Of a stretch of 64,000 nucleotides of DNA, positions 18,024 through 31,585 are shown in pieces. This DNA is from Schmidtea polychroa (taxonomy: Eukaryota): positions 262,818,001 through 262,882,000 of the forward strand of contig CM097885.1 in NCBI GenBank assembly GCA_044892525.1, given 5' to 3'. Each line of letters starts with the position of its first letter. The stretch's first letter is position 1. Both the position numbers and the translations under genes were made by a program. The notes under the pieces are model-generated. The model saw nothing but the letters and a program-made list of their open reading frames with translations. It searched no databases and was not told the DNA's origin.

Positions 18024-20627
18024 CTATATACGTGAGTTTGGAGGTCGCTGAGCATTCCAGGCCTCCACCCACTGTTCCTGCTTGATATTATTTGGTCTTT
18101 TTACCCGATGCTGAAAATTTCTGATTCTGGTCATTTCCAGTTCTCCGCGATGCCGTCTATCTTTGATTATTTTTATTGTCCCCCCCGTTATAATTAAAAA
18201 TGCCCCTGTTATTATTATTCCGCTGATCCACATCATCTGTTTTACGCTTATAATTTCCGATTTTTCCTTGTTCGTTATTGTTGATATCGTCTCTGTACTT
18301 TTTGGATTACCACTTTTACTATTTCCTTTTATCATCCCTCGTATCCTTGCTACCTCCTCGTTCATACCTTCCTTTGCCATCTTTTGTATTTTTTCCATCT
18401 CGTCCTCATATACATAATTGTCCTGATATTTCTCACTGGTTTTCTTGCGCTTTCTTTCCTCATCTTTTTCATCATTGATTTTTCTTTTCTTCCCTCTTTT
18501 CCCCGGGTATCGTCGACATTCTCTTTCTGGGCCGTTTCTCAGGATACAGACCGTATATTCCTTTGGTGGTTGTTGTTGCGTTACATATTGTAGACAGTTT
18601 TCTCCTGGTCCTAGCCTTGAAATACACACTTTGTGCTCCTTTCTTGGTTGAAGCTGTGTTATCACTATCTCACCTCCTTTACTCAGGTGTACCTCTTTCC
18701 ATTTGACTTTTGTTATCTTCTTCCCGTTTCGATGTTGGTACGCTTCTTGTATTCCCACTTCCGTTATTGGTTCTGCATCTTCATTTTTTAACACTAGTCT
18801 CTGATAAGCTCTAGACATACATCTTCCTAATATACACCTTTCTTTTAAATCCCATTCTTCTTTTAGATCCCATTGTTGCTCTTGTACTTGCTTTTTCTTT
18901 TCTTGTTTTAGTTCTTCCTCTTTGTTGTCCTTATTTTCCGTTTCTTTGGCTTCTTTTATCGTTCTCATTCCTCCCTGGGCTGTTATCATTTCCACCATTG
19001 TTAATACGAGTATCATTATCATCATATTTGTCTCCATTTCTTTGTTGGTAAAAAGTAGGCATACCCTCTGTTTTCCAATATTCGTCTTTTCTTCTTGCTT
19101 CATTCGGTTTCCCGGGTTATCCTCTTCCTTTTTCGTACTTGCGTTGTTATTTTCTTGATTATTCTCCTCTGGTTTCTCGTTCTCTTTATTCCCGTTTCGA
19201 CTTTTCTCATTAATATCGTCGTCTTTATCGTCTTTATCTCTCCCGCTGTCGTTTAAAATGTCGTCCTCGACATTTATATCGTTCAACAATCTGCGATATG
19301 CTGTTAGCACTCTATTTCTTGCTAATTTTGCTTCGAATTCGAACTCTTTTCTGCCTGTTGCTGCATGTCTCTTTCTATTCCATTCTTTTACCAGTTCTCT
19401 CAATTGTATCCGACGATGTTTTCCGATTCGCTTTTGTTCGTTTTGACTTTGCGTGAATTTGAGGTCTTCCCTGTTTAATACGATCATTATGATTTTCGGA
19501 GTGCCTCCTTTTGTTAATGTATTCTTAACCATTGCATTTTCTCCGTTTTCGTAGAACTCATTTATATTTATTGCATATTTATTGCTTTGTGGTATTTTCC
19601 ATGTTAACAGTAACTTCATGGCTTCTAAATTTTTCCGTATCGTATTCCATTGGAACTGTGACGTGTTTTTACAGATATTTTCTACCTCAGTTCTTGTAGC
19701 ATTCTTACAAATGAATCTAATCATTTCCAAGTTTGGTTGTATTGTTGCCCAATCCATGGTAGAATTCCCTTCGTTTGATATTTCGTCAAGCCTTGATCCT
19801 GATTGATGTAGTATATGTAATGTTTTCGGGTGTATATTTGTTATTGCTGCATACATCATTGCTGTTTCTCCTTGTTCATTTTTTGCATTAGATTCTTCTC
19901 CTAAGTCTCTAAGAATTCTTATGATGGTTATCGCTCTGTTTTCCTTTGCTGCTAATATTGCTTGTTGTAATGGTGTTCTTGAATCTTTTGTTGGTATGGT
20001 GAACGCTAGTGGTATGAATGTTTTTATTTTACCTATGTCTAAATTTGTGGTTTGATCTCTTGCGTAGGTGTGTACTGTTTTTATTATTTTTGCCAGTATC
20101 GCTTCATCAGATAAATCTAGCATTTCTTCAAAGAACACCTCTTTGGCTTTGCGTATTATTATCTCTTGGTCTGAGTTTATTATCCTGGCTTTACCTGTCG
20201 TTGTTATATCAGTTATTATTTGATCGACTTGTTCCTCAGACTCTCTTGTTTTTACTTTCTTTATTTTTAACTTTTTCTTGTTTGAACTGTTAATGCGTTC
20301 CTCCGCCGTAAGAACTTGAATAATACTTAGGTAAGTTTCTCGAATGTTATCCATAGTCTCCATCATATATAGAACACTCACAGTTTCCCAATATTTTACT
20401 TGCACTTTATCGGTAAATTGAGATATAGATTTTTCGAAGTTTGTAATTCGCTTTCTGATCAGCTGTTCGTCTTTATGGTTTGAGAGTTTTATACCCCGTT
20501 GTAGTAGTTGATTTGGAATTTCAAATAGGTGATGTCCTCTCATTGCTTCTCTCATCAAGGTGTTTTCTCCTTTGGTAAATGTTTCTTTATGTCTACCATA
20601 TAATCGTTTTTGATCGGGTTTCTCCAC
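18024..20627 (-). CDS. Ankyrin-repeat region + internal signal-like segment + FN3-like domain + TM (867 aa; probably the frameshifted continuation of the pol/ankyrin frame)
   Basis: ANK: RTPLQQAIL, EQGETAMMYAA, NEGNSTMDWAT; hydrophobic MMIMILVLTMVEMITAQ; FN3-like IVITQLQPRKEHKVCIS; TM WISGIIITGAFLIITGGTIKII followed by KDRRHR. Confidence 0.8.
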   Translation of the reverse strand: MEKPDQKRLYGRHKETFTKGENTLMREAMRGHHLFEIPNQLLQRGIKLSNHKDEQLIRKRITNFEKSISQFTDKVQVKYWETVSVLYMMETMDNIRETYLSIIQVLTAEERINSSNKKKLKIKKVKTRESEEQVDQIITDITTTGKARIINSDQEIIIRKAKEVFFEEMLDLSDEAILAKIIKTVHTYARDQTTNLDIGKIKTFIPLAFTIPTKDSRTPLQQAILAAKENRAITIIRILRDLGEESNAKNEQGETAMMYAAITNIHPKTLHILHQSGSRLDEISNEGNSTMDWATIQPNLEMIRFICKNATRTEVENICKNTSQFQWNTIRKNLEAMKLLLTWKIPQSNKYAININEFYENGENAMVKNTLTKGGTPKIIMIVLNREDLKFTQSQNEQKRIGKHRRIQLRELVKEWNRKRHAATGRKEFEFEAKLARNRVLTAYRRLLNDINVEDDILNDSGRDKDDKDDDINEKSRNGNKENEKPEENNQENNNASTKKEEDNPGNRMKQEEKTNIGKQRVCLLFTNKEMETNMMIMILVLTMVEMITAQGGMRTIKEAKETENKDNKEEELKQEKKKQVQEQQWDLKEEWDLKERCILGRCMSRAYQRLVLKNEDAEPITEVGIQEAYQHRNGKKITKVKWKEVHLSKGGEIVITQLQPRKEHKVCISRLGPGENCLQYVTQQQPPKEYTVCILRNGPERECRRYPGKRGKKRKINDEKDEERKRKKTSEKYQDNYVYEDEMEKIQKMAKEGMNEEVARIRGMIKGNSKSGNPKSTETISTITNKEKSEIISVKQMMWISGIIITGAFLIITGGTIKIIKDRRHRGELEMTRIRNFQHRVKRPNNIKQEQWVEAWNAQRPPNSRI

Positions 20628-21727
20628 GAAATTAGTACTCCAGTAATTGATATTAATTTCCCTTTGATAGCGGTTAATAGCCCGTCGTACATGTTTCCTA
20701 TTTCTCTGTTATCCTCGTATGTCAATAGATCTACTAAGGTTATGAATGCTTCGGTGCTTTTTCCTTCGATTGCATGATGTAGTGCATTTTTCTGATCGTG
20801 GTCTTGTGTGGTTATCTTTGATCCGGTTTCTAGTAATGCTATTATGATATCCTTAGTTTTATCTCGATTTGCTGCTATCATTAGTGGAGTGTAACCTTGA
20901 TTGTTTTCTTGATCTGTCGAAATGTTACAATCGCGGAATGCTTCAATTGTTTCTAGTATTTGTTCATTATTACCCACCTTTAAAAGCTTGTGCAGTGGTG
21001 TATCTCCGTAGTGGTCTGTGATCGTGAATAATATAGGCCATTGGCTTTTAACTACCCTGAGCAATGGGTGTGTTCTTTCTCGATTTGCATAGTTTTCTAT
21101 CATTGTTAGCAGACCTCCCAATATCTCAAAATCTAATCTGTCTTTTGCCCATCCGGGTATTTTAGCTTTTACTTCTTTTACGATTTTCTCGGCTTCTGAT
21201 GGTTGTAATCCCAATCGATTGTTTGTTGGTTCGTTTATCAGTTGTAACATATTTATTCTATACGTTTGTGATCTTGTTGTTAATGTACGTCCTTCTGGCT
21301 GACTGGTGGCTGTTTTCGGTATTGACTTACATCGTGCCACATTTACATATATTGGCCTTGTAAACGGATTATTTACCAATCGTACTCTCACGTTGGTTTC
21401 TCCGACGAATAAAATCTCATATGGCCCTTTGCCATTTCGTTGCAATTTTTTGGTGGTTCCTGGGATCAATTCTGGTGTTTCAATCATCACCCAATCACCG
21501 GTTTGAAATGTATGTTGTTTAACGTTTTTCTTTCTATCATGCAGATCTTTGTAACTTTCCTTATAAAACTTTATATTCAATCCTGCAGTTTCCCAGATTT
21601 CCTGCATTCTTTCCTTGAATTTTGTCACATAATCGTCTATTTCCATATACTGGGATATCGGTGGCTGATATTCTAAGTCCATTGGCATATTGCATTCTCT
21701 GCCGTACATCAACTTGAATGGACTCAT
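20555..21727 (-). pseudogene. pol: Integrase C-terminus (GPY/F module) fused to ankyrin repeats
   Basis: SPFKLMYGRE...GPYEI...VNVARCK then YGDTPLHKLL, QGYTPLMIAA, DQKNALHHAI; same frame as 21746-22090, separated by a single TAA. Confidence 0.88.
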
Positions 21728-30972: not shown

Positions 30973-31585
30973 CTAACGCTTGATTTATTGGTTTGCTAGC
31001 TCCGAAGGTTTTCCTCAAAAATGTTTTGATGGTTTCCCAATTGTCTAACTTCGTATTTCTCTCTTTTGCTTCTAGGTATACTTCGAGGGCGCTATCGCAC
31101 AAAAACAAAGGCATTCGTTTGCTAATTGCTTCCGCTGTCCATCCGCATACATCGATATAGACTTCAAAATTGGTTATAAACGTTGCCAACTTGTTCGCAT
31201 TCCCGTTAAACGGTTCGCCTCTAAATTTTTCTTTATACTCGTCGGTTTTTACCACATTCGTCATGACTGGTTCTTGAAACTCTATTGTTTCTTTTAAATT
31301 TTCCAGCGATGTCGCTAAATTATGGACGGATAATTCTTCTGTTGACCCGGTTAGGTTGTTTGTTATATCGGATAGGCTTTCTCTGCTTCTAGATCGACTA
31401 GGGGTGTATCCGAGGTTTTCTTGGTCAAATGTTGGTATTTGATTTGTTCTTCTTGCTCCTTGTGATACTCCTCTTTGCTGTTTTATGGATCGTCCTCTTC
31501 TAAGCTGTTCTAGTTCGTCTCCTGAAAATAATACGTCTCTTGACTTACTTGAGGATCTGAGATTTGGTTTCTCCGTGACTCCTTC
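30803..31585 (-). pseudogene. gag: Gag N-terminal/capsid part (frameshift to the next frame near 30945)
   Basis: FNGN...FITNFE...CGW...PLFLCDSALEVY...WETIKTFLRKTF...LASRKQRANES; the frame is open upstream of ATG 31264 to a TAA near 31587. Confidence 0.88.

Follow-up and report, generated by a model that had tools for sequence, protein, structure and literature searches.

We analysed a 64,000-nucleotide (nt) stretch of the Schmidtea polychroa genome (GenBank assembly GCA_044892525.1, contig CM097885.1, positions 262,818,001 to 262,882,000), here called the window, whose minus strand carries a chain of adjoining or overlapping open reading frames (ORFs) at 30803–31585, 27907–30972, 26999–27673, 22059–27002, 21746–22138, 20555–21745 and 18024–20708. 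The chain belongs to a decayed, dead copy of a multicopy giant Ty3/Gypsy long terminal repeat (LTR) element of the Burro/GYPSM1 type. Judging from the sequences, Gag, Env, protease, reverse transcriptase (RT), RNase H, integrase and ankyrin repeats of this family lie in one frame of ~4,730 codons that is likely translated as a single polyprotein, and the eight breaks that divide the frame in the window are random damage; we put the probability of this reading at about 0.93.

Mapping of the window onto the frame of an uninterrupted natural copy revealed eight breaks and none besides: stops at 27909, 27840 and 21748, and frameshifts at ~30934, ~27663, ~27004, ~22097 (in a TA run) and ~20587. The original prediction, made from the window sequence, that small lesions split consecutive ORFs was recovered at all eight sites, with the last frameshift displaced from the ~20635 given earlier. 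Its further claim, that the breaks lack an AT-rich spacer, agrees with a GC content of 0.36–0.45 within 60 nt of the eight breaks versus 0.19–0.29 in five accessory-ORF spacers at 13.8–18 kb, the limits of which we set ourselves. The window copy has also lost 570 nt in frame at ~23345, which are retained in 29 of 29 scorable copies and where the uninterrupted copy gives an RT match at E 1e-36; a Pfam scan of the window ORFs found no RT match. Another 9 nt are lost in frame at ~30430, within the middle zinc knuckle. The polyprotein of ~4,500 codons first proposed therefore describes the window span (~4,518 codons), whereas the family frame, from a candidate ACG start to the stop, comprises 4,721–4,733 codons, and the 570-nt loss renders the window copy inactive whatever its point lesions. 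A non-autonomous, RT-less subfamily is not supported, the RT-less joint being found only in the window among 40 hits scored of 452 candidates.

Other copies were obtained by searching the same genome (781 Mb, four large contigs) with a 1-kb probe, which gave 596 candidates; 40 of these, at 93–100% identity, were scored and the best 30 of the 39 non-self hits were taken, each as two overlapping stretches. A junction was counted as read through when the codons on either side of it lie in one stop-free frame, with the copies aligning on both sides as the denominator (1–4 of the 30 did not). By this measure the eight junctions, in order, are read through in 22/27, 29/29, 28/29, 28/29, 28/29, 20/28, 27/28 and 26/26 copies, the end stop at 18026 is kept in 26/26, and a control junction, leading to the following accessory ORF, is open in 0/26. 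Of the 105 break clusters found across 31 copies, 98 are singletons. Stops or frameshifts conserved between copies, which would speak against a single frame, were looked for at all eight sites: seven of the window's lesions are private to it among the 30 copies, and the eighth, the TA run at ~22097–22100, lies within the integrase and is the family's one hot spot of recurring frameshifts, with seven of 31 copies shifted (six and the window). The TA-run copies fall into two different net-shift classes and 20 of the 28 scorable copies read through; these shifts represent slippage, not programmed recoding. Among the 30 copies two are unbroken, but they form a tandem pair.

A protein search with an RNase H fragment extended this picture. 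The best 150 of its 8,536 candidates were scored, and 60 of these 150 own-genome hits contain open frames of 4,724–4,817 codons, counted from stop to stop; ten of ten copies chosen for open frames are open in both halves. The single polyprotein frame thus stands, uninterrupted in 60 of 150 hits and read through in 20–29 of the 26–29 scorable copies at each junction. Its assignment to an active ancestor holds as far as the single frame goes, but the frame is not merely ancestral, being still open in those 60 hits. Two near-identical copies (L013–L016) lie in tandem 26.4 kb apart, apparently sharing one LTR, and are not independent insertions; similar pairs recur among the 150 hits.

Purifying selection acts along the whole frame. 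Among five uninterrupted copies, one of them from a subfamily at a synonymous divergence (dS) of ~1.3, the ratio of nonsynonymous to synonymous divergence (dN/dS) is 0.05–0.09 in ten of ten pairs, and it stays within 0.02–0.17 in all 12 segments downstream of the AUG, the stretches between the window breaks among them. Variants common to at least four copies have a dN/dS of 0.048. Changes private to the window comprise 39 synonymous, 44 missense and 3 nonsense substitutions, where ~3 nonsense would be expected among 47 amino-acid-changing substitutions (7.2%). The pattern fits an active lineage followed by neutral decay. These counts replace an earlier "lineage-private" dN/dS of 0.10, which was set aside on account of the mosaic nature of the nearest copy.

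Two points weigh against the single-frame reading with random damage: protein identity, by which the 150 hits were ranked, gives intact copies an advantage, and some of the hits may be assembly duplicates; and the five window frameshifts may be assembly errors rather than real DNA. It is improbable, though it keeps some weight, that some of the breaks, mainly frameshifts, arose in this way and that the window copy is less damaged than it appears, a reading that would leave the conclusion for the family unchanged. Small indel errors are typical of long-read assemblies, and the LTR parts differ by only nine substitutions in ~3,830 nt, so that the insertion is young for one with eight breaks; the three stops, however, match the private substitution load, and the RT loss inactivates the copy anyway. 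In addition, one 90-nt contig (run X2) is identical to the window over the stop at 27909, though one of its arms measures 30 letters, one short of the 31 asked, and X2 may be the assembly's own sample. Contigs from public runs collapse this repeat, are uninformative on expression and bear on this one lesion only. The alternative that the breaks mark genuine gene limits or sites of programmed recoding (read-through or frameshift), above all at the integrase TA run, has next to no probability and was rejected: 6 of 30 copies, besides the window, have a shifted TA run, and stops occur three codons away from the first window frameshift in two copies and at the codon of the fourth break in one, but the TA-run site splits the integrase core and its copies differ in net shift, the nearby stops are lesions of a different type, other copies read through the junctions where the window's lesions are private, and 60 of 150 hits have no break whatever.

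The reading frame extends upstream of its first AUG, and here a second question arises, that of the translation start. The frame is open for 107–185 codons ahead of the AUG in all five uninterrupted classes, and an in-frame ACG is invariant in 38 of 38 aligned copies, among them the far subfamily; position −3 is a purine in 36/36 and position +4 a G in 36/38. The 100 codons upstream of the ACG contain 2–8 stops in each of 27 stretches, the first of them four codons upstream in 25, and the 104 codons downstream contain no stop in 25 stretches and one in two. Frame-breaking indels between subfamilies are dense until 4–6 nt upstream of the ACG; past it, the only indels are a 6-nt one or a compensated pair, which keep the frame. 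The invariance of the ACG together with the conservation of the frame for ~104 codons before the AUG suggests a non-AUG start, and initiation at the ACG seems to us somewhat better than an even bet. Against it speak the 5 of 53 ACG-majority threonine columns elsewhere that are also invariant, the milder selection between ACG and AUG (dN/dS 0.36), the AUG start of a sister family, and the relatedness of the copies, by which the ACG counts are not independent.

It is possible, if on balance doubtful, that splicing or the flatworm spliced leader, which ends in AUG, supplies the start instead, or that the 104 codons are untranslated and kept as RNA structure. The 3′ AUG of the flatworm spliced leader is described as able to start ORFs (PMC9851317), and the first 30 codons are very conserved at the nucleotide level (26/29 identical between far subfamilies). 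However, the six contexts inspected by eye are rich in purines over the 12 nt ahead of the ACG and show neither a pyrimidine tract nor an AG in common phase, codons 61–75 show eight synonymous and no missense differences, and the indels past the ACG preserve the frame. Non-AUG starts are known for viral structural proteins, namely the CUG of murine leukaemia virus (MLV) glyco-Gag and the ACG of Sendai virus C′ and of adeno-associated virus (AAV) VP2. The candidate ACG resembles them as a near-cognate codon in strong context, in frame upstream of an AUG, that would add an N-terminal extension, the evidence here being conservation. Such a start is possibly new for this element; it was not found in print among titles, abstracts and term counts, and Grohme 2018 with its supplements may cover it. 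If real, it bears on protein control in a retroelement lacking a recoding site.

Hydropathy peaks lie near codons 1711, 2287, 4399 and 4667, with weaker ones at 2321 and 3846; in the far subfamily only those at 2293, 4400 and 4668 exceed the threshold. We give even odds to an ACG-started polyprotein of 4,730 residues with two membrane modules, one being Env and the other a C-terminal surface protein, all-beta and without a known family. Translation would start at the ACG, perhaps with leaky scanning to the downstream AUG, and the polyprotein would be made on the endoplasmic reticulum and cleaved by host signal peptidase together with the aspartyl protease of the element. Env would be placed in the lumen by an internal signal (~codon 1710) and a membrane helix (~2290), the protease-RT-RNase H-integrase-ankyrin block would return to the cytosol after the helix, and another small surface protein would be set free through a further signal (~4400) and helix (~4670). 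Gag, Env and Pol would come in a 1:1:1 ratio, the single frame requiring no recoding site. Less favourable to this model, the peak taken as the Env signal is borderline, at 1.4, and under threshold in the far subfamily, and cleavage and topology are both read from a plain hydropathy scan. If the model is correct, non-AUG initiation could act as a dial for the output of an enveloped retroelement that has neither frameshift nor read-through control.

Table 1. Features of the element in the window (coordinates are window positions).
Feature	Positions	Strand	Remarks
Polyprotein gene of the element	18024..31585	-	3 stops, 5 frameshifts and loss of RT core in the window copy
In-frame ACG, candidate non-AUG start	31574..31576	-	~104 codons upstream of first AUG (31264-31262)
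Gag (Retrotrans_gag, weak; CCHC knuckles)	30376..31114	-	Pfam; cut by frameshift ~30934
Charged linker, ubiquitin-like-looking segments	27004..30375	-	By eye; weak PF00794, E 0.012
Bcl-2-like segment	26661..26810	-	Weak, under Pfam cut-off: PF00452 E 0.049 (window), 0.015 (uninterrupted copy)
Env: predicted internal signal, fusion-glycoprotein ectodomain, transmembrane helix	24700..26480	-	PF24664 E 9e-72 (mononegavirus-type); hydropathy
Aspartyl protease	23862..24137	-	PF00077 E 3e-09
Site of 570-nt in-frame loss (RT core)	23340..23350	-	Joint absent from all other copies among 40 scored hits
RNase H and integrase	21872..23105	-	Pfam; TA-run frameshift ~22097 falls in integrase
Two ankyrin-repeat clusters	19698..20953	-	PF12796 E 1.5e-14, 1.4e-07; frameshift ~20587 between clusters
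C-terminal module: predicted signal, all-beta domain (18492-18839), predicted transmembrane helix, tail, conserved stop (18026-18024)	18024..19030	-	
Separate downstream TRAF-like gene (RING, Zn finger, MATH)	16020..17459	-	Pfam, MATH match strong; 462-residue ORF recurs in 6 fetched flanks
Three further accessory ORFs	13166..15826	-	No Pfam family over cut-off
3′ LTR, ~4.1 kb, TG...CA ends	8812..12931	-	ORF of ~253 codons in most copies
Upstream accessory RING-finger ORF	33612..34109	-	PF13920 E 7e-08
Inner half of 5′ LTR	34538..36540	-	98.7% identical to 8813-10817
Displaced, inverted outer part of LTR	39000..40828	+	99.95% identical to 10836-12664

The domains follow one another in a single frame. 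Three CCHC knuckles are present in four of the five uninterrupted copies checked and two in the window, and the charged linker, which contains the breaks at 27909, 27840, 27663 and 27004, has a dN/dS of 0.05–0.11. In the uninterrupted copy the PF24664 Env lies in the same frame as gag and pol, between gag and protease, the Pol order protease-RT-RNase H-integrase is intact, and the RVP, RT_RNaseH, Integrase_H2C2 and Retrotrans_gag matches are consistent with Ty3/Gypsy. By eye, a segment at ~23500–23800, between protease and RT, has the look of a degenerate dUTPase, with no Pfam match. Pfam gave no BIR domain in 17 window ORFs or in the two halves of the uninterrupted copy.

The polyprotein had been predicted to end in a fibronectin type III (FN3) and transmembrane region. 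An all-beta domain is modelled and a transmembrane helix predicted there, but the FN3 label is unconfirmed: there is no fn3 Pfam match up to E 1, and Foldseek returned no match at E 0.001, with weak beta-sandwich rows alone. The domain is modelled as all-beta with eight strands at a predicted local distance difference test (pLDDT) score of 73; an earlier 181-residue model of the module was poor (pLDDT 51). No relatives of the module were found at E 0.001 among 2,446 candidates, all of lengths 491–1,565. An FN3 fold is possible and unproven.

The 5′ LTR is rearranged (34538–40828), its inner half being in place and followed by ~2.4 kb of other DNA and by the outer 1,829 nt in inverted orientation. 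Compared with the 3′ LTR, the inverted part differs at one site and the direct part at eight sites and two gaps, an unevenness that hints at later duplication or conversion. LTRs of ~4.1 kb with TG...CA ends flank several other copies on both sides; two tandem copies repeat every 26.4 kb, which with a second 4.1-kb LTR gives a total length of ~30.5 kb. A stretch 7 nt inside the 5′ LTR resembles a primer-binding site for tRNA-Pro, and no canonical polypurine tract was seen ahead of the 3′ LTR. The LTR ORF of ~253 codons (9464–10102, 34995–35825), which has no Pfam match, is open in most fetched copies though their LTRs are 68–77% identical to those of the window. Five 79-nt tandem repeats (32634–33033), of which other copies hold variants, occupy the leader between the RING ORF and gag. 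Elsewhere in the window, a 1,049-codon ORF at 60061–63210 (minus strand), with matches to a protein-primed type DNA polymerase B (E 5e-31) and, weakly, to endonuclease VII, is likely a Polinton/Maverick, and a 325-codon ORF at 45335–46312 (plus strand) is of the FkbM methyltransferase type (E 5.5e-06).

A giant single Gag-Env-Pol-ankyrin polyprotein is already known, an ORF of ~4,900–5,100 residues having been in print since 2019 (PMC6431247). According to the Burro account in that paper, planarian Burro/GYPSM1 exceeds 30 kb and has an ORF1 of 4,873 residues (5,140 in a Burro-like element of Dugesia tigrina) encoding Gag, three knuckles, ubiquitin-like and Bcl-2-like segments, Env between gag and pol, a dUTPase-like segment, protease-RT-RNase H-integrase and ankyrins; accessory ORFs can also sit within the polyprotein. 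The element described here resembles Burro1/GYPSM1 and Burro2-4 of Schmidtea mediterranea in its one huge ORF1 (~4,730 codons), in Retrotrans_gag, three CCHC knuckles, a Bcl-2-like segment (weak here), an in-frame Env akin to mononegavirus fusion proteins, the Pol order and ankyrins, and in its MATH/TRAF and RING cargo, accessory ORFs and total of ~30 kb (PMC6431247). Unlike GYPSM1, in which MATH/TRAF lies inside ORF1, and the D. tigrina element, in which it lies upstream, MATH/TRAF here forms a separate downstream gene (PMC6431247). The missing BIR match is a further difference from Burro1/GYPSM1, which lowers identity with that element itself and not with the Burro type. With at least 150 close copies, the family is probably included in the Grohme 2018 repeat library. 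Elsewhere, BURRO1 RNA is reported to rise after smedwi-2 RNAi (PMC8532177), and Burro is merely mentioned in PMC11410931 and PMC13238120.

Six GAG-ENV-POL errantiviruses of Schmidtea with an HSV/gB-type Env, Smed_errantivirus_1-6, are likewise flatworm Ty3/Gypsy elements with the same Env type between gag and pol (PMC13524379). The window Env fragment is nearest to Smed_errantivirus_5 (~55% identity by eye), and the window element is probably none of the six listed; the terms "ankyrin" and "non-AUG" have no occurrence in the main text of PMC13524379. The sister family in the S. polychroa genome (L101/L102, L103/L104) has a single 3,334-codon frame with its AUG at codon 16, encoding Gag, ubiquitin-like and Bcl-2-like segments, Env, protease, RT, RNase H and integrase, with no ankyrin match. 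The Burro description in PMC6431247 is silent on a C-terminal membrane module and on a non-AUG start. Our analysis supplements it with measures of selection over the full frame, uninterrupted copies by the dozen and a hot spot of slippage; the C-terminal membrane module and the candidate start at the ACG are modest additions.

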